Origin: Mycolicibacterium smegmatis
Lineage (GTDB): Bacteria; Actinomycetota; Actinomycetes; Mycobacteriales; Mycobacteriaceae
DNA length: 32,000 bases
Reading direction: 5' to 3'
NCBI RefSeq assembly: GCF_001457595.1
Contig: NZ_LN831039.1
Span: 5,370,001-5,402,000 of the forward strand
Part shown: positions 17,694-24,411 of the stretch, piece by piece
Layout of the letters: each line of letters opens with the position of its first letter
How positions within the stretch are numbered: the first letter of the stretch is position 1
Notes under the pieces: model-generated
Databases searched by the model: none
Told to the model about the DNA's origin: nothing
The model's input: only the letters and a program-made list of their open reading frames with translations
Program-made: the position numbers and the translations under genes

Positions 17694-18737
17694 ATGACCG
17701 CAACGATGCGTGCCGAACGCTTCTATGCCGACACCAAAAAAGTTGTCGTGGAGGATGTTCCGGTCCCCGAGCCCGGTCATGGCGAGGTCCTGGTGAAGGT
17801 CGAGTTCTGCGGCATCTGCCATTCGGATCTGAGCCTGATCAACGGCACCTTCCCGGCGCAAGTCCCCGTGGTGACGCAGGGGCACGAGGCCTCGGGCGTC
17901 ATCGCGAAGCTCGGGCCGGGGGTCACCGGATGGTCCGAGGGCGACCGCGTGATCGTGGCGGCAGGCAGGCCGTGCATGAGCTGCCCCAACTGCCTGCGCG
18001 GCGACATCGGCAACTGCCTGCGCATCCAGTTGATGGCGTTCGCCTACGACGGCGCGTGGGCCGAGTACACCGTCGCGCAGGCCGTGGGCCTCACCCGGGT
18101 GCCCGACAACGTGCCGCTGGAGCAGGCCGCGATCCTCGCCGACGCGGTGTCGACGCCGTACGGCGCGGTGGTGCGCACCGGCAAGGTCGGCATCGGTGAG
18201 TCCGTGGGCGTGTGGGGCGTCGGCGGCGTCGGTACGCACATCGTGCAGTTGTCGCGTCTGGTGGGGGCCGCGCCCGTGATCGCCGTCGACATCAAACCCG
18301 AGGTGCTCGAGCGGGCGCTCGCCGTGGGCGCCGACTACGCGTTCGACGCGCGCGACGAGGATCTCGCCGACAAGATCGCGGGCGTGACGGGTGGGCGCGG
18401 TCTGGACGTCGCGTTCGACGCGGTGGGTCTGGCGTCGACGTTCGAGCAGGCACTGGACCGTCTCACGGTCGGCGGGCGCCTGGTCGCGGTCGGGATGAGC
18501 GCCGAGTCCCCCACCGTGGGTCCGACGTCGATGTTCGGGCTCACCCAGAAACAGGTGCTCGGTCACCTCGGTTACCAGAACGTCGACATCGCGACCCTGG
18601 CCACGCTGGTCTCGCTCGGTCGTCTGGATCTGTCGCGGTCGATCAGCGAGATCGTGTCGCTGGAGGACATCGCGGCAGGTATCGACAAGCTCGAACGCCA
18701 GGAGGGCAGCCCCATCCGGATCCTGGTGCGCCCCTAG
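17694..18737 (+). CDS. Zinc-dependent alcohol dehydrogenase (MDR family)
   Basis: Motifs are CGICHSD, GHEASG, the structural-zinc Cys cluster CMSCPNCLRGDIGNC and the Rossmann motif GVWGVGGVG. GAAGGGA SD lies upstream. Confidence 0.92.
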   Translation: MTATMRAERFYADTKKVVVEDVPVPEPGHGEVLVKVEFCGICHSDLSLINGTFPAQVPVVTQGHEASGVIAKLGPGVTGWSEGDRVIVAAGRPCMSCPNCLRGDIGNCLRIQLMAFAYDGAWAEYTVAQAVGLTRVPDNVPLEQAAILADAVSTPYGAVVRTGKVGIGESVGVWGVGGVGTHIVQLSRLVGAAPVIAVDIKPEVLERALAVGADYAFDARDEDLADKIAGVTGGRGLDVAFDAVGLASTFEQALDRLTVGGRLVAVGMSAESPTVGPTSMFGLTQKQVLGHLGYQNVDIATLATLVSLGRLDLSRSISEIVSLEDIAAGIDKLERQEGSPIRILVRP

Positions 18738-19783
18738 CGCAGATGCGGTGCGGCCTTCGCGCTGAACAGCGGCAGGTCGAGGTAGGTGGCGATGCCCGGT
18801 TCGGCCGCACACACCGCGGGGATCGAGTTGACACAGTGCGCCGCGGTGGCCACGACACCGGGTTCGGGTCCGGTTTCACCCACTTCGCCCTGAAAGCCCT
18901 TGATCACCACGTCGAAGTCGGGATTGCCGCACACCTGCATCTCGTAGCGCTGCCCCTGCGGACCGAAAGTCCATGGCGGATCGAGGTTTTCCTCACCCAT
19001 CAGCCAGTTCACGGTCACCCGCACCACCACCTGTTCACCGCGCAGGGCCTCCCAGTGGAACCTGCGGCCCGCGACCTGACCGGGCTGGATCGCCCCGAGC
19101 GGCGAGTCGATCGGCGCGGTGGCGACCGCGATCTCCTGGCGTGAACGGATTTTCGGGTCGGCGGCGAACCCGAACTGGTCGACGCACATCTTGACGGCCT
19201 GCATGAACCCGCCGTCGAGGAGTTTCTGCATGGGCCCGCTCAACGCCTTGTCGGGGACCTCACCGAAACCCATGACGTGGCGCAGGACGTCGGGCGCGTC
19301 GTAGGTGCGCAGATCGGAGAACTCCTCGGCGCGAACGAATGTCACGCCTGTCGAGAAGACCGAGAACAGCAGCGGGAACTTCTCGCTGATCCCGCCGGGT
19401 GCGATGCCGGTGCCGTGCAACGTCGCGTTGCCCGCCAGTGCGGCCTCACGCAGTGGCGCGCCCTGTCTTTCACTCGGATACACCCAGCCGACCGGGGTGA
19501 CGACGTTCTTGCCCGACCGCAGCAGCGCGGCGACCTCCTCGGGGTTCGGCAGCAGCGGCGCGTAGATCACCGCGTCGGCGTCGAGCCCGAGGATGTCGTC
19601 GATGTCGCGGGTCGTCTCCACGCCCAGCGGTTCGGTCCCGATGATCTCACCGACGTCGCGGCCCGCCTTGCCTTCCGAATGCACCCAGCAGCCGACGAGT
19701 TCGAGGGCGGGATGCTCCAGCACACCCTTGATGGCCGCCATCCCGACACCGCCGGTCGCCCACTGCACCACCCGTAACGCCAT
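18734..19783 (-). CDS. NAD(P)-binding oxidoreductase, DapB-N-terminal-like (Rv1059-like)
   Basis: The N-terminal Rossmann region is LRVVQWATGGVGMAAIKGVL. GGAGAGG SD lies 6 nt before ATG 19783. The product is 349 aa. Confidence 0.8.
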   Translation of the reverse strand: MALRVVQWATGGVGMAAIKGVLEHPALELVGCWVHSEGKAGRDVGEIIGTEPLGVETTRDIDDILGLDADAVIYAPLLPNPEEVAALLRSGKNVVTPVGWVYPSERQGAPLREAALAGNATLHGTGIAPGGISEKFPLLFSVFSTGVTFVRAEEFSDLRTYDAPDVLRHVMGFGEVPDKALSGPMQKLLDGGFMQAVKMCVDQFGFAADPKIRSRQEIAVATAPIDSPLGAIQPGQVAGRRFHWEALRGEQVVVRVTVNWLMGEENLDPPWTFGPQGQRYEMQVCGNPDFDVVIKGFQGEVGETGPEPGVVATAAHCVNSIPAVCAAEPGIATYLDLPLFSAKAAPHLR

Positions 19784-19849
19784 CGCCCGCCTCTCCGCAG
19801 AACTGGAACACGTTCTACCACCTGGGGCGCACCTGTGACCAGAGCCGGT

Positions 19850-22111
19850 CTACAGACCTGCGGCGGCCTCGGCGAGCAGAGCGCGGAACCGACCGGGGCC
19901 GGTGATACCGGCCAGCCGCCGCTGCGCTTCGTCGGCGTAGCGGCGCGCCTCGGAGGTGCGTCCCTGCAGGCGCCGTGCGTACACAAGTTCGACGAGGATG
20001 GGGACGACGGATCCGACGGCATCGCGCTCGGGCGGGATGCCTGCGACCACCTCGTAACCCGCGAGGGCGTCGGCCGCGGCCTGATCGACGTCTCCCAGCA
20101 GCCGATGGGTCCGCGCGGTGGACGACCACGTGTTGGCGGCCTGCGGCACGCGGTCGATGCGCTGCTCGCGGCGGATGTCGGCGGCCCGCCGCACCGAGTC
20201 GGCGGCACCGCACTGCCCGTGGGCGGCCTGCACGAGGCCGCGCAACGCCCACAGCCCGGCCAGCGCGATGGGTTGGTGCTCTGTGGATTCCAGCGCCAGG
20301 AGGTCCTCGACGACGTGCAGCACCTCAGGCGTCGGGCCGTCGACCCAGGTGGCCAGCAGCGCGTACACCGCGCCCTGCATCGGGTACCAGATGCCGGTGG
20401 GCGGGGTCATCACGAACGACGAACGCGCACACTCGCGCCCGGCCTCGACCTCGCCGAAGTTGAAGCAACCGCGCAGGAAGTCCATGATCGCCTGTGAGTG
20501 GGAATCGTTGGCCGACAAGGGTTTCACGGCTTCGATGCGCCGGTGGAGTTCGCCGGCCTCGCCTCGGGCGCCCGCGATGGCGGCCCATGCCAGCCCCAGT
20601 TCGGGTGAGCCCGTCACCAGTTCCATGGGCAGCATGTCCAACCACCGTTCGACCGCGGCGCCGCGTGGGCTGATGTTCATGAACCGCGGGTATTCGGCGG
20701 CGATGACCCGCACCGCGTCGTCGTAGTCGGCGGCACGCACGTAGTACTCGATGGCCTCGGGAATCCGGTCGTGGGCCATGAGCCAGTCGGCCGCACGGCG
20801 TTGACGCAGCGGCAGATTCGCGTTGCCGGCCGCGGCGGCCCTCGCGCGCAGCACGGCCGCGAACGTGTGGTGCAGACGCTGCCAGAACCCGATGGCGTCC
20901 AGGCGGAGCACGAACATGTTGCCGCGCAGCTCGCCCAGGATCTCCTCGGAGTCCGTGGCGTCACGCACCGCGTCGCACAGATCGGCCGTGAACCGGTCGA
21001 GGAACGAGATCCCTTCGAGGAACGCGAGCTGCCTCGGGGTGATCGCGTGCAGGATCTCGTCGGCGAAGTAGTCCTGCACGCGCCGGTCCGGTACCGAGAG
21101 CGACTGCAGCACCTCCTCGGTCGTGGCACCCGTCCGCAACGCCAGACCCGACAGGTAGATCGCCGCGGCCCAACCGTCGGTGCCCGCGGCGATCTCGTCG
21201 GCCTGCTCGGGGGTCAGCGCCACCCCCAGACGCTCCAACAGGAGTTCGCGGGTCTCCGCGCCGTCGAAGCTGATGTCCTCGGTCTCCAGGTGCGCGAGCC
21301 GTCCGGTCATCACCAGCTGGGCCGTGGGCAGCGCGGGGCGGGTGCGCGAGCACATGACGACGCGGCACGTCGCGGGATCGATCCGCTCCAGCATCCAGGA
21401 GAGCTGCCGGATGACCGTGACGTCGGTGATCTCGTGCAGGTCGTCGAGAACCACCGACACCGCGGTGTCTTCGGCGTCGAGCGTGTCGGCCAGGCGCACC
21501 AGCACGCGATCGACGTCGGCCCCGCCGACGATCTCGCGGAGAAGGCCGCCGCCGAACTCCGGCAGCGCCGTGCGCAGCGCGATGAGAAACGCCGTCCAGA
21601 AGCCGCCCGGCTCGTTGTCGGAGCGTTCCAGCGACAACCAGGCCGGCGCGCCGTCGGTCCGGTCGAGCAGTTGCGCCGCCAGCGTGGATTTGCCGTTGCC
21701 GCCGGGCGAGGTGATGAGCACGTGGGTCACGTGTGGACCGTCGATCATCTCCAGGCACCGGGTGCGCCGGATGTGTTCGGCGCGCCCGCTGGGCCGCTGG
21801 AACTTGGTCACCGGGAACAACGTCGACGTGTCCATCGCCTCGGTGGACGCCGCGCCGAGGCTGCGACGGGCGCCCACGACGTCGTCGAGGGTGTCACCCG
21901 CCTCCCACGCATCGAGCAGTGCGCTGATCGCGGCGAGCGAGAAACCCTCCTTCTGCAGACGTTGCACGGTGATGAACCGCTCGACGTGCGTCTCGTCGTA
22001 GTACCCGGTCCTACCCACCAGAATCGGCGGTGTCAGCAACCCTTTCTCCTGGTACGCCCGAACGTTTCGCGCCGACGTGCTCATATGTCGAGCAAACTCG
22101 TCGATCGTCAT
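19850..22111 (-). CDS. MerR-type HTH fused to MalT/LAL-type STAND NTPase with C-terminal helical-repeat region
   Basis: ATG 22111 gives MTIDEFARHMSTSARNVRAYQEKGLLTPP (MerR HTH). Other elements are Walker A SPGGNGKST, Walker B VSVVLDDLHEI and the MalT-like signature TDGWAAAIYLSGLAL. The last ~350 aa are Ala/Leu-rich and helical. No C-terminal LuxR HTH is present. The track start 22204 adds an Arg/Gly-rich extension that I reject. Confidence 0.85.
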   Translation of the reverse strand: MTIDEFARHMSTSARNVRAYQEKGLLTPPILVGRTGYYDETHVERFITVQRLQKEGFSLAAISALLDAWEAGDTLDDVVGARRSLGAASTEAMDTSTLFPVTKFQRPSGRAEHIRRTRCLEMIDGPHVTHVLITSPGGNGKSTLAAQLLDRTDGAPAWLSLERSDNEPGGFWTAFLIALRTALPEFGGGLLREIVGGADVDRVLVRLADTLDAEDTAVSVVLDDLHEITDVTVIRQLSWMLERIDPATCRVVMCSRTRPALPTAQLVMTGRLAHLETEDISFDGAETRELLLERLGVALTPEQADEIAAGTDGWAAAIYLSGLALRTGATTEEVLQSLSVPDRRVQDYFADEILHAITPRQLAFLEGISFLDRFTADLCDAVRDATDSEEILGELRGNMFVLRLDAIGFWQRLHHTFAAVLRARAAAAGNANLPLRQRRAADWLMAHDRIPEAIEYYVRAADYDDAVRVIAAEYPRFMNISPRGAAVERWLDMLPMELVTGSPELGLAWAAIAGARGEAGELHRRIEAVKPLSANDSHSQAIMDFLRGCFNFGEVEAGRECARSSFVMTPPTGIWYPMQGAVYALLATWVDGPTPEVLHVVEDLLALESTEHQPIALAGLWALRGLVQAAHGQCGAADSVRRAADIRREQRIDRVPQAANTWSSTARTHRLLGDVDQAAADALAGYEVVAGIPPERDAVGSVVPILVELVYARRLQGRTSEARRYADEAQRRLAGITGPGRFRALLAEAAAGL

Positions 22112-22153
22112 GCGGCCAGACAAACAGCGTCCCCCATCTCCCTGCGCGCACCC

Positions 22154-22165
22154 CGTGTGCACACG
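22154..22165. promoter_or_regulatory. Perfect 12-bp palindrome CGTGTGCACACG upstream of the MerR-STAND gene
   Basis: Self-complementary sequence 43-54 nt upstream of ATG 22111, inside a long divergent intergenic region. It is a candidate operator. Confidence 0.35.
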
Positions 22166-22263
22166 CCGATCCCGTCGCCCCCATGCGCCACCATCTGATG
22201 GCACATTCTTTTCTTCGGTTCACATCTCCCTCCACTATGACGTGTCCCGCCTAGTCTCGCCGT

Positions 22264-22692
22264 GTGGGGATCGCACGCCGGGCACCGTTCACGCCGCCTT
22301 CGTTTACAGGGACCTCCCATGGTCTTCACAGCGAACATATAACGCGCGGGCAAATATCCCTACGCCATCGAGGTCAAACAGGCCGGGCAACCACAAGCCG
22401 GCACCACCGCCCCTCGACCAGGCCGGTCGTGGCGATCGCATCCGACGGCACCGTCGTGTTTGCCAACCACGCGTTCGCCGCTCTCGTCGGCCAAACCCCG
22501 CCCCAGCTCGCCCGGATGAGGAGTTCCGACGTGTTCCTGTCGATCGCCGACGACGACGCCGCGTGCCGAACCCTCCCGGCGCTCGCCGGATCCGACGTGG
22601 AGATGCTGCACGGCGATCTGTACGTGGTCATGGCGCGACTGCGCCGAACCACCGGACCCGACGCACAGATGCTGTACGCGGCGTTCGACTGA
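22264..22692 (+). CDS. Small PAS-like protein, possibly a gene fragment; start uncertain
   Basis: The C-terminal ~87 aa (VAIASDGTVVFANHAFAALVGQTPPQL..) resemble the first two thirds of a PAS fold and have high third-position GC. The first 55 codons have only about 62 percent GC3 and include rare codons (ata x2, cta). However, GTG 22264 sits exactly 6 nt after a TAGTCT -10-like hexamer (22252-22257). The alternative start is GTG 22429. Confidence 0.4.
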   Translation: MGIARRAPFTPPSFTGTSHGLHSEHITRGQISLRHRGQTGRATTSRHHRPSTRPVVAIASDGTVVFANHAFAALVGQTPPQLARMRSSDVFLSIADDDAACRTLPALAGSDVEMLHGDLYVVMARLRRTTGPDAQMLYAAFD

Positions 22693-22782
22693 GCGCTGCC
22701 GACTGGCTTACCGAACCATCGCGGAGAGGGTGAGGCACCTGCGCGGCGCGGCCGTCGTCACGGCCTACCAGCGCGCCGAACG

Positions 22783-24411
22783 CTAGAGGTGGATCACCTC
22801 GTAGGCGCCCTCGGCGTGGCGGGCCCGAATGGTCTTCTTGTCGTACTTGCCGACGCTGGTGCGCGGCACCTGGTCGACGAAGGCCCAGCGTTCGGGCAGC
22901 CACCACCGAACCACCTTGTCGGCGAGGAACTCACGTAGCTCCCCGGGATCGGCCGAGGCGCCCTCGTGCAGCACCACCACCGCCAGCGGACGCTCCTGCC
23001 AACGCTCGTCGGGCACGCCGACGACGGCGGCCTCCAGCACCGCGGGGTGTCCGATGAGGTGGTTCTCGAGTTCGACCGACGAGATCCATTCGCCGCCGGA
23101 CTTGATGACGTCTTTGGCCCGGTCGGTCAGCGTCACGTAGCCGAGTTCGTCGATGACGCCGACGTCACCCGTGCGCAGCCAGCCCGAGTCGAACTTCTCG
23201 GCGTCACGGCCCAGGTAGTAGCCGCCCGTGATCCACGGGCCGCGCACCTCGAGTTCACCGACGGCCTTGCCGTCGCTCGGCAGCGGGTTGCCGGCGTCGT
23301 CGACGATGCGCACCTCGACGCCGCACATGGGCCTGCCCTGCGTGATACGCATCGCCCAGTGCCGCTCGTCGGTGACACCGGGCAGCGGTTTGGCCACCGT
23401 CGCCAGCGGTGACGTCTCGGTCATGCCCCAAGCCTGCTGGATGTAGACGTCGTGGCGCTCCTGGAAGGCCTGCATCAGCGACAACGGCACCGCCGACCCG
23501 CCGCACGCCACCAGGCGCAGCGACGAGATGTCGTGTCCCGGCGACTTTTCCAGGCAGTTCAGTACGTCGTTCCAGATCGTGGGCACGGCTCCGGCCAGCG
23601 TCGGGCGCTGCGTCTCGATCAGTTCGATCAGCGACGCGCCGTCGAGGAACCGGTCGGGCATCACCAGGCCGGCGCCTGCCATCAGCGCGGCGTACGGCAG
23701 GCCCCACGCGTTGGCGTGGAACATCGGCACGATCGGCAGCACCACGTCACCGCAGCTGACGTCCAGTGCGTTGGCGGTGCACGTGTTCAACGAGTGCAGG
23801 TAACTCGACCGGTGGCTGTAGACAACGCCTTTCGGGTTTCCTGTGGTGCCGCTGGTGTAACACATTGCGGCGGCGGAGTTCTCGTCGATGTCGGGCCAGT
23901 CGAACCGGGTGGGCCGCCCGGCCATGGCCTCGTCGTAGCGCAGCACCGTGCGGTCCGCCCCGCGCAGCGGCTCCAGATCGCCGTCCCCGACGACGATCAC
24001 GGTGTGCACGCTGTCGACCAGCGGCAGCACGGGCGCCAGCAGCGGGATCAGTGACGAGTCGGTGATGATCACGCGGTCCTCGGCCTCACGGGCGATGAAC
24101 CCGATCTGCTCGGGCGACAGCCGGATGTTGAGCGTGTGCAGCACGGCCCCCATGGCGGGGATCGCGAGGTAGGCGGTGAGATGCTCGGTGTTGTTCCACA
24201 TGAAGGTGCCGACACGCTCGTCGCCGGTGATGCCGACCTCGCGCAGCAGGTGCGCCAACTGGGCCGCCCGTTCCCCCACCTCGCGGTAGGTCGTGGTGCG
24301 GAAGCCGCCCTGGCCGGTGGCCATGGTGACGGTCTGATCTCCGTTGACGCCGCACGCATGGCGCAGAATCGCGGTGATCGTCAACGGCCATTGCTGCATG
24401 GTGCTGTCCAC
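22783..24411 (-). CDS. Medium/long-chain fatty-acid--CoA ligase (FadD14-like, Thermus LC-FACS type)
   Basis: AMP-binding motif YTSGTTGNPKGV. The N-terminus DSTMQQWPLTI resembles the ..STMMDEELN.. start of characterised homologues. The C-terminal region has GEWISS. The product is 542 aa. Confidence 0.9.
   Translation of the reverse strand: MDSTMQQWPLTITAILRHACGVNGDQTVTMATGQGGFRTTTYREVGERAAQLAHLLREVGITGDERVGTFMWNNTEHLTAYLAIPAMGAVLHTLNIRLSPEQIGFIAREAEDRVIITDSSLIPLLAPVLPLVDSVHTVIVVGDGDLEPLRGADRTVLRYDEAMAGRPTRFDWPDIDENSAAAMCYTSGTTGNPKGVVYSHRSSYLHSLNTCTANALDVSCGDVVLPIVPMFHANAWGLPYAALMAGAGLVMPDRFLDGASLIELIETQRPTLAGAVPTIWNDVLNCLEKSPGHDISSLRLVACGGSAVPLSLMQAFQERHDVYIQQAWGMTETSPLATVAKPLPGVTDERHWAMRITQGRPMCGVEVRIVDDAGNPLPSDGKAVGELEVRGPWITGGYYLGRDAEKFDSGWLRTGDVGVIDELGYVTLTDRAKDVIKSGGEWISSVELENHLIGHPAVLEAAVVGVPDERWQERPLAVVVLHEGASADPGELREFLADKVVRWWLPERWAFVDQVPRTSVGKYDKKTIRARHAEGAYEVIHL

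Follow-up and report, generated by a model that had tools for sequence, protein, structure and literature searches.

A MerR-type winged helix joined to a MalT-like STAND ATPase in Mycolicibacterium smegmatis, with a candidate operator at its locus

We analysed a 32,000-nucleotide stretch of Mycolicibacterium smegmatis DNA (RefSeq assembly GCF_001457595.1, contig NZ_LN831039.1, positions 5,370,001 to 5,402,000 of the forward strand; hereafter "the window", with position 1 as its first nucleotide), in which one gene encodes a 753-residue protein that joins a MerR-type winged helix-turn-helix (wHTH) to a MalT-type module of the class of signal-transducing ATPases that have numerous domains (STAND). 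Upstream of this gene lie a conserved dyad, our candidate operator, and a small divergent gene for a PAS domain; downstream, on the same strand, lies a DapB-like gene. The regulator gene and the parts of its product, which include a nucleotide-binding oligomerization domain (NOD), are placed as follows.

19850..22111, minus strand: coding sequence of the 753-residue MerR–STAND regulator (stop codon at 19850-19852)
21902..22111, minus strand: MerR-type wHTH, residues 1–70 (Pfam MerR_1, CueR and MerR models, AlphaFold2 model)
21809..21901, minus strand: flexible linker, residues 71–101, in place of the MerR coiled-coil helix (low confidence in the AlphaFold2 model, variable, with an indel)
20822..21808, minus strand: MalT-type NOD, residues 102–430 (8bob_C alignment, NCBIfam MalT, PF25873, Foldseek)
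19853..20821, minus strand: all-helical repeat sensor, residues 431–753, with no terminal helix-turn-helix (HTH; AlphaFold2 model, Foldseek match to 6mfv)

The 5′ limit of the gene can be drawn in two ways. The longest open reading frame (ORF; 19850..22204, minus strand) would use an alternative GTG start at 22204, which falls within the conserved non-coding dyad described below; the ATG at 22111 gives the 753-residue product (ORF list and translation), and is backed by an alignment of 21 full-length homologs, in which most of those with an intact N-terminus start at, or a few residues before, the sequence MTIDEF. Because residues 1–68 align to positions 1–68 of the MerR_1 profile and the homologs start near MTIDEF, the 753-residue model is, by this comparison, the correct one. 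All of the motifs quoted in a sequence-only reading of the window recur in the translation (Walker A, SPGGNGKST, at residues 135–143; Walker B, VVLDDLHEI, at 220–228; and TDGWAAAIYLSGLAL at 311–325), as do the termini that it gave (C-terminus ...RFRALLAEAAAGL, N-terminus MTIDEFARHMSTSARNVRAYQEKGLL).

The regulator corresponds to UniProt A0R2Z6 (also AFP41593) and to a 37-member M. smegmatis cluster (P0001) of 100% identity, and the same locus was retrieved from an M. smegmatis assembly (L001). Deposited models differ in length (722, 729, 744 or 753 residues) and in name ("putative serine/threonine protein kinase" or "MerR family transcriptional regulator"): records of strain mc2 155 carry the Ser/Thr kinase name and 722–729 residues, with a truncated start at which half of the MerR HTH is lost, and newer records carry the MerR family name and 744 or 753 residues. 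The kinase label on the mc2 155 records stems, as judged from sequence similarity, from the MalT-like STAND module that the regulator has in common with PknK-type kinases. The locus tag is ambiguous, in that accession order would make A0R2Z6 MSMEG_5289, and the flank label given by Kendall et al. would make the neighbour MSMEG_5286; MSMEG_5287 is A0R2Z4, the neighbouring alcohol dehydrogenase. Window positions convert to NC_008596 by adding 5,360,024 (an offset derived from MSMEG_5284). An Rfam scan of the whole window gave zero matches.

Domain architecture and family of the regulator

The N-terminal domain is a MerR-type HTH, as had been read from the letters alone. Pfam MerR_1 (PF13411) matches over residues 1–68 with E=1.7e-17, above its gathering score, and MerR family models match this head only (CueR over 1–70 of 127, MerR over 2–68 of 124, with the HspR model also within residues 1–70). 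PDB chains of MerR and CueR align to residues 1–68, and GlnR (4r4e) is also among the PDB sequence matches. An AlphaFold2 model built from a 21-sequence alignment (mean predicted local distance difference test score, pLDDT, 81.8) places helices at residues 3–9 and 14–22, a wing at 30–37, and further helices at 40–54 and 59–70; few parts of the protein are as conserved across the 21 aligned homologs as the recognition region of this head (TSARNVRAY.ERGLL).

In classical MerR proteins (PMC5859096) the wHTH is followed by a long helix, through which an antiparallel coiled-coil is made, and by an effector domain. The regulator has neither of the latter two elements. The long dimerizing helix that should follow the wHTH is absent from the model, where residues 73–101 have pLDDT <50 and are predicted to be disordered (the sole helix there spans 5 residues, 75–79); this linker region shows little conservation, and an indel, in the alignment of the 21 homologs, and PF09278 aligns at model positions 2–30 of 65 only, the match stopping near residue 70. 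The place of the small C-terminal effector domain is taken by residues 102–753, which form a MalT-type NOD and a helical-repeat sensor. The MerR part is thus, in the predicted structure, a winged helix alone, without a dimerization coiled-coil.

The STAND core could be assigned from several directions. The NCBIfam MalT model aligns at positions 5–638 of 903 to residues 102–729 (E=2.3e-57, a score under the equivalog cut-off, which a non-orthologue would not be expected to reach), and the PDB MalT chain 8bob_C aligns over residues 102–510 (E=1e-23). A Foldseek search with the AlphaFold2 model returned the same MalT chain (E=1.7e-17, template modelling (TM) score 0.77 on target) and an archaeal STAND protein with tetratricopeptide repeats (TPR; 6mfv, E=2.8e-11, over 694 columns); PF25873 (WHD_MalT) is recorded for the regulator as a precomputed match, and AAA_16 and AAA_22 fall below their Pfam gathering thresholds. 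Within the NOD, an N-loop (TKFQRP, residues 102–107) precedes the Walker A motif (nt 21683-21709) and the Walker B motif (nt 21428-21454), and these are followed by a helical domain and a winged-helix domain that carries His414. The elements of a STAND switch are accordingly all present: a P-loop NOD that has both Walker motifs and the sensor arginine, a helical domain and a winged-helix domain with its ADP-contacting histidine and an N-loop, and a C-terminal superhelical, TPR-like sensor.

Alignment to MalT pairs TKFQRP with the MalT N-loop SKLSRP, and RLHH (which contains His414) with the histidine of YHPLF; the sensor arginine, R256, lies in CSRTRP. In MalT the N-loop is an element of autoinhibition and activation, and the histidine of the winged-helix domain contacts the beta-phosphate of ADP (PMC10427625). 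Invariant in the 21 homologs, which are 44–69% identical, are T102, K103, F104, P107, G138, G140, K141, S142, D223, D224, H226, R256, W314 and H414. That the Walker A and B residues, R256, W314 and H414 do not vary across homologs as divergent as this points to purifying selection on the switch.

C-terminal to the NOD, the AlphaFold2 model shows paired helices from residue 433 to 750 at high pLDDT. A Pfam scan of the regulator found no match to PF17874 (TPR_MalT) and, at the C-terminus, no LuxR/GerE domain (PF00196) or other HTH; the same scan found no Pkinase, Trans_reg_C, BTAD, nuclease, protease or TIR domain. All 21 family members terminate at ...AEAxxGL or nearby. The earlier proposal of a MalT-type STAND core with helical repeats and no LuxR HTH is therefore borne out by Pfam, NCBIfam, PDB and Foldseek, and also by alignment to the LuxR-type protein P0022 (below); by sequence and by fold the regulator belongs to the MalT clade of STAND NTPases.

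The nearest relatives outside the family are LuxR-type MalT-like proteins of ~750 residues (P0022, P0024), collinear with the regulator over 660 residues. Residues 89–748 of the regulator align to residues 2–667 of P0022 at 37% identity; the GerE/LuxR domain of P0022 follows at 686–738, and the regulator C-terminus ends where the linker to that domain starts. The family thus looks like a clean exchange, in which a C-terminal LuxR HTH was lost and an N-terminal MerR wHTH gained on the same switch. We observe one further rearrangement, a GAF variant (P0023, P0139; L090 2748-4892) that is 50% identical over residues 1–351 (MerR head, linker, nucleotide-binding domain and helical domain) and in which a region with a GAF domain at its end takes the place of the winged-helix domain and repeat sensor.

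This family is rare, actinobacterial and uncharacterized. In a set of 5.8 billion proteins it makes up 21 clusters at 90% identity; among 1.84 billion representatives, searched with residues 1–330, we found 4 full-length clusters at 50% identity (P0004, P0021, P0018 and the GAF variant P0139), and a scan of ~185,000 species genomes gave 4 full-length loci, all from Mycobacterium or uncultured Actinomycetes. Named hosts are M. smegmatis, M. confluentis, M. wendilense and Mycolicibacterium spp. Literature searches (by accession; MerR with STAND; smegmatis with MerR, MalT or PknK) found no study of the regulator or of its architecture, in keeping with the earlier suggestion that this is not an already characterized regulator class; one paper (PMC5081680) mentions MerR regulators only unnamed. 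A metagenome contig of 16.8 kb (L088) carries two paralogous MerR–STAND genes, P0011 and P0019, 2 kb apart.

A conserved dyad and nearby PAS genes

The region upstream of the regulator holds three features that bear on its possible output.

22183-22206, no strand assigned: candidate operator, 24-bp dyad ATGTGCCATCAGATGGTGGCGCAT, conserved across family loci
22429..22692, plus strand: small divergent PAS-domain gene, 87 residues as called, longest ORF from 22264 (gene call in L001, AlphaFold2 fold)
22154-22165, no strand assigned: palindrome CGTGTGCACACG of the sequence-only reading, present and not conserved in ortholog loci

Alignment of the M. smegmatis intergenic region with that of the 69%-identical ortholog loci L082/L083 leaves two conserved islands amid diverged sequence, one of which is ATGTGCCATC-N6-TGGCGCAT. 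Family-wide, this element takes a 24-bp form (ATGNGCCAT-N6-ATGGCNCAT) that consists of a 16-bp core, GCCAT-N6-RTGGC (22187-22202 in the window), and outer arms. The 24-bp dyad is present in the window as a single copy, at a distance of 73–96 bp from the regulator ATG and of 223 bp from the called PAS start, upstream of both. All 13 family loci contain the dyad: the strict pattern GCCATCANNNNRTGGC matches once or twice per family locus and once among 76 other loci, and the looser core matches 3 times in 899,170 bp of non-family loci, both strands counted. For 12 out of 13 distinct regulator genes the dyad lies upstream at no more than 500 bp; its position is −63 to −112, except in L003, L004 and L089, where it lies beside the divergent gene at about −325 to −475. 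The GAF-variant locus is among the twelve, with its dyad 63 bp upstream.

MerR-type winged helices bind palindromic sites of 16–24 bp as pairs (PMC5859096). Since no gene other than the regulator is common to all dyad-carrying loci, and since the recognition region of its head is so highly conserved, we infer that the MerR head binds this dyad. A different site had been proposed from the window alone, namely the palindrome at 22154-22165; the palindrome exists, but in the closest ortholog loci (L082/L083) unrelated sequence stands in its place while the dyad is conserved, and for lack of conservation we reject it as the likely operator.

One-mismatch matches to the 16-bp core also occur, at 24387-24402 (within the upstream FadD gene, at its first codons) and at 20881-20896 (inside the regulator gene). 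Four such matches occur in the window, where 1.15 would be expected, and a count of four is reached in 3 of 100 shuffles; neither of the two named here has the 24-bp form, and they are probably due to chance. The second conserved island (22327-22338, plus strand, CACAGCGAACAT) is identical in M. smegmatis and L082/L083, with differing flanks, and could be a regulatory element or could encode HSEH within a PAS ORF that has an N-terminal extension.

On the far side of the dyad, the 87-residue ORF is unannotated-looking in the window. It matches PAS_9 with E=4e-4, below the gathering score, and its AlphaFold2 model (pLDDT 92.9) gave PAS domains as all of the top 50 Foldseek PDB matches, with TM scores up to 0.74. 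Its own family is tiny (20 clusters in 5.8 billion proteins). A divergent small ORF is also present in L082/L083, 50% identical to that of M. smegmatis over 80 residues, and PAS proteins of other sizes accompany the regulator elsewhere: in five loci (L002, L005, L084, L085 and L087) the divergent gene encodes a PAS protein of 357–393 residues with HTH_3-like and winged-helix-like segments, and in three others (L003, L088 and L089) PAS proteins of 182–211 residues are encoded a few kb away or directly downstream, beside a gene for a PAS-PAS-GGDEF protein. In these last three, extra copies of the dyad precede the small PAS genes (67 bp upstream in L003, 54 bp in L088, 137 bp in L089). From this arrangement the small PAS gene at 22429..22692 is a probable target of the regulator.

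The metagenome contig L088 gathers these elements in one place: it carries the dyad three times and has a gene for a PAS-PAS-GGDEF protein, and directly downstream of P0019 comes a small PAS gene. L003 and L089 have this pair of a PAS-PAS-GGDEF and a small PAS gene as well. The PAS-PAS-GGDEF neighbour hints at a link to cyclic di-GMP signalling. In L003 (12172-13083, plus strand), the dyad-preceded gene for a 211-residue PAS protein ends in a stop codon that is immediately followed by 91 in-frame codons, 53% identical to the C-terminal regulator residues 662–752; this stretch is either the remnant of a lost paralog or part of an interrupted fusion of a PAS domain to a sensor fragment.

More distant homologs of the small PAS protein (41–45% identity) are found at L091/L092 8001-8435 (Rhodococcus opacus) and L093 3915-4340, directly downstream of a membrane Ser/Thr kinase (R. 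opacus) or of an 882-residue LAL-type regulator with AAA_16 and GerE domains (L093). The idea that the small PAS protein is an obligate partner of this STAND clade is weakened by these homologs, whose partners have no BLAST similarity to the regulator and whose loci lack the dyad.

A proposed switch, its alternatives and its place among known systems

MalT cycles from an ADP-bound monomer to an ATP-bound oligomer when inducer engages its sensor domain (PMC10427625), and we propose by analogy that the regulator works along similar lines. At rest, the NOD would hold ADP in a closed monomer, the Walker A and B motifs, the sensor arginine and the ADP-contacting histidine all being conserved. An inducer sensed by the C-terminal helical repeats would open the NOD and allow exchange of ADP for ATP, and oligomerization would follow. 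Because the MerR head itself lacks a coiled-coil and is tethered to the MalT-type N-loop by a disordered linker of ~30 residues, it is this oligomerization that would supply the pairing of two winged helices, and the paired winged helices would then bind the 24-bp dyad. With the single M. smegmatis dyad lying between the regulator and the divergent PAS gene, the likely output would be autoregulation together with control of the PAS gene.

We favour this model with moderate confidence, and with it the view that the regulator is a cytoplasmic, signal-sensing STAND-class transcription factor descended from MalT-like ATPases of ~750 residues; the parts that we infer are that the regulator binds the dyad and does so in a nucleotide- and inducer-dependent way, together with the sign of regulation and the inducer itself. 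An extension of the model is possible but doubtful: ATP-dependent STAND oligomerization would replace the MerR coiled-coil such that the nucleotide and inducer state sets the number of heads offered to the dyad, and the small PAS proteins, beyond being targets, would feed back in trans on the regulator as co-sensors or anti-activators, in the way that MalY, MalK and Aes do on MalT. A hint in this direction comes from L003, where a fragment of the regulator sensor domain follows the PAS gene in the same frame.

Several observations weigh against oligomerization-paired heads on the dyad. The absence of the coiled-coil rests on a monomer AlphaFold2 model and on truncated profile matches; the enrichment of the dyad was counted on the same loci from which the dyad was derived; and the paralog P0019 has no upstream dyad of its own, the sole nearby copy lying past its stop codon, 54 bp before the PAS gene. 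A scan of 19700-22800 for consensus sigma-70-type promoters and terminators found nothing.

Of the other arrangements considered, the one closest to textbook MerR logic would have the regulator sit as a permanent dimer on a dyad within an over-long −35/−10 spacer, the STAND part triggering the untwisting that takes the promoter from repressed to active. The site is palindromic, and in several loci a TANNNT hexamer follows the core by 3 nt (TAGAAT in L003b and L089b, TAGCAT in L088a, TACGAT in L090 and, toward the PAS gene, TAACAT in L082), which would put the core at about −31 to −16, a MerR-type position. The M. smegmatis regulator side, however, carries no such hexamer and no clear −10 at that offset (the PAS side has only cATTCT), and no −35 element is recognizable; moreover, the dimerizing helix that carries the twist is absent, and a disordered linker between the winged helix and the rest of the protein would make a poor torsion lever. 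We consider this reading unlikely. It is more improbable that the dyad is owned by another factor, for example the divergent wHTH-PAS-HTH protein or a global regulator, with the MerR–STAND protein binding elsewhere, perhaps at 22154-22165. The five loci in which the divergent gene encodes a DNA-binding PAS protein supply a candidate owner, and so count against our own assignment, but the dyad is equally found where no such protein is encoded (M. smegmatis, L082/83, L003/4, L088, L089 and L090), is rare in unrelated actinobacterial DNA, and is conserved where the palindrome at 22154-22165 is not.

The STAND part might, alternatively, be a scaffold or relic in a nucleotide-independent or decayed regulator, with the kinase-like annotation reflecting a PknK-type regulatory role without DNA binding. 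The sub-threshold AAA_16 and AAA_22 scores, the Ser/Thr kinase name of some records and the module common to PknK-like kinases could be read in this way; the invariance of the Walker A and B motifs, R256, W314 and H414, the lack of a kinase domain, and a MerR head that ranks with the best conserved parts of the sequence all speak against it, and we give this reading little credence. Least credible of all is a conflict or anti-phage STAND (Avs- or bNACHT-like) with the HTH as sensor or effector. Many bacterial STAND NTPases are defence proteins (PMC13581612), and PADLOC gave a weak match of residues 1–47 to the HTH protein mad1 (E=2e-7), but no PADLOC STAND or effector model matched, Pfam found no nuclease, protease or TIR domain, the nearest relatives are MalT/LuxR regulators, the context is one of housekeeping lipid-metabolism genes, and a conserved dyad lies in the upstream region of the gene itself.

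Returning to the MalT-like switch with a tethered MerR head, comparison with known regulators helps to define what is shared and what is exchanged. MalT is the best match in both sequence and fold, and has in common with the regulator the N-loop, Walker A and B motifs, helical domain, winged-helix domain with its histidine, and helical-repeat sensor. The sensor of the regulator is shorter (the MalT model is matched to position 638 of 903 only), and the C-terminal LuxR/GerE HTH of MalT and the LAL family is absent, a MerR-type winged helix standing at the opposite end instead. The predicted site also differs, being a palindrome, whereas MalT binds arrays of MalT boxes. PknK-type kinases contain the same MalT-like STAND module (29–33% identity), but place a kinase domain at the N-terminus where the regulator has a DNA-binding winged helix as its output.

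With the classical MerR proteins (MerR, CueR, SoxR and BmrR) the regulator shares a homologous N-terminal winged helix, a palindromic candidate operator and a divergent gene arrangement; in place of their antiparallel coiled-coil and small effector pocket it has a STAND input of ~650 residues (definition as in PMC5859096). The regulator therefore lacks the LuxR HTH that marks the MalT/LAL proteins and also two defining features of classical MerR proteins. Its head resembles, by analogy, the coiled-coil-less heads of BldC and TnrA/GlnR, which are MerR-type winged helices that likewise have no dimerization helix and obtain their pairing on DNA from elsewhere (PMC5859096). TnrA/GlnR bind palindromes, like the candidate site of the regulator; BldC is stand-alone and binds head-to-tail on direct repeats (PMC5859096), whereas the regulator has a fused module of ~650 residues and an inverted-repeat site. 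BldC and TnrA/GlnR are all small, stand-alone proteins, and the pairing partner of the regulator head would instead be a fused, ATP-dependent oligomerization module.

The order of domains is not itself new. An N-terminal DNA-binding domain followed by a NOD and a helical-repeat sensor is found in the STAND activators AfsR (SARP-NOD-TPR; PMC10936776) and Bacillus subtilis GutR. AfsR combines an OmpR-type SARP domain and BTAD with an NB-ARC-type NOD, in contrast to the MerR-type wHTH, disordered linker and MalT-type NOD of the regulator, and neither sequence nor fold searches showed a sequence relationship between the two. The sequence-only reading had set MerR proteins, which twist DNA as dimers, against STAND proteins, which oligomerize, and saw in their combination an unusual switch; the MerR winged helix is indeed there, yet the opposition was overstated, in that the coiled-coil is replaced by a disordered linker and a DNA-binding domain ahead of NOD and repeats is an established STAND design. 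The architecture is real and rare, yet STAND modules were already known to swap their output domains.

STAND ATPases are best known as immune receptors, and the few bacterial STAND transcription factors that have been studied (MalT, AfsR and GutR) each carry a different DNA-binding domain; the family described here adds a fourth output-domain type. It constitutes a natural domain-swap experiment, the same switch occurring, in closely related proteins of ~750 residues, with a LuxR HTH at the C-terminus in some and a MerR wHTH at the N-terminus in others, and the MerR-NOD head occurring also with a GAF sensor. If head pairing does depend on NOD oligomerization, then a DNA-binding fold of constitutive dimers can be converted into one gated by oligomerization. 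The small size of the family limits the reach of the finding. In practical terms, a mis-annotated gene is corrected, a concrete candidate operator of 24 bp is provided, and the regulator is separated from its KstR-controlled neighbour.

The DapB-like neighbour

The gene downstream of the regulator encodes a protein with DapB_N and DAP_DH_C domains (18734..19783, same strand), and the 66-bp gap between the two genes (19784-19849) was correctly given in the sequence-only reading. That reading had also put forward the gap as a region that the regulator might bind; it holds a published KstR box instead.

19804-19817, minus strand: KstR box TAGAACGTGTTCCA, between the regulator and DapB-like genes, matching the KstR motif TnnAACnnGTTnnA

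Table 3 of Kendall et al. 2007 (PMC1995591) includes the 20-mer ACTGGAACACGTTCTACCAC among its M. smegmatis instances of the motif, with the flank "MSMEG_5286" and no test by quantitative reverse-transcription PCR (RT-qPCR), and the counterpart of the box in L082 is a perfect palindrome, TAGAACACGTTCTA. The box appears to belong to the DapB-like neighbour and not to the regulator; because it lies in the upstream gap of that gene, the DapB-like gene would have its own control, related to lipid catabolism, and we predict it to be a member of the KstR lipid/cholesterol regulon.

Conservation of gene order suggests the same separation. The DapB-like, Zn-dependent alcohol dehydrogenase and patatin genes are retained only in the 69%-identical ortholog locus L082, and the contexts of other family members are quite different. 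We reject the DapB-like gene as a functional partner of the regulator, given that it is kept in 1 of 10 further family contexts (L082) and that the gap holds the published KstR box; the adjacency of regulator and oxidoreductase is probably lineage-specific, and a regulatory link between them unlikely. Beyond it, the Zn-dependent alcohol dehydrogenase gene (17694..18737, plus strand) and the DapB-like gene converge, such that their stop codons overlap by 4 bp (18734-18737).

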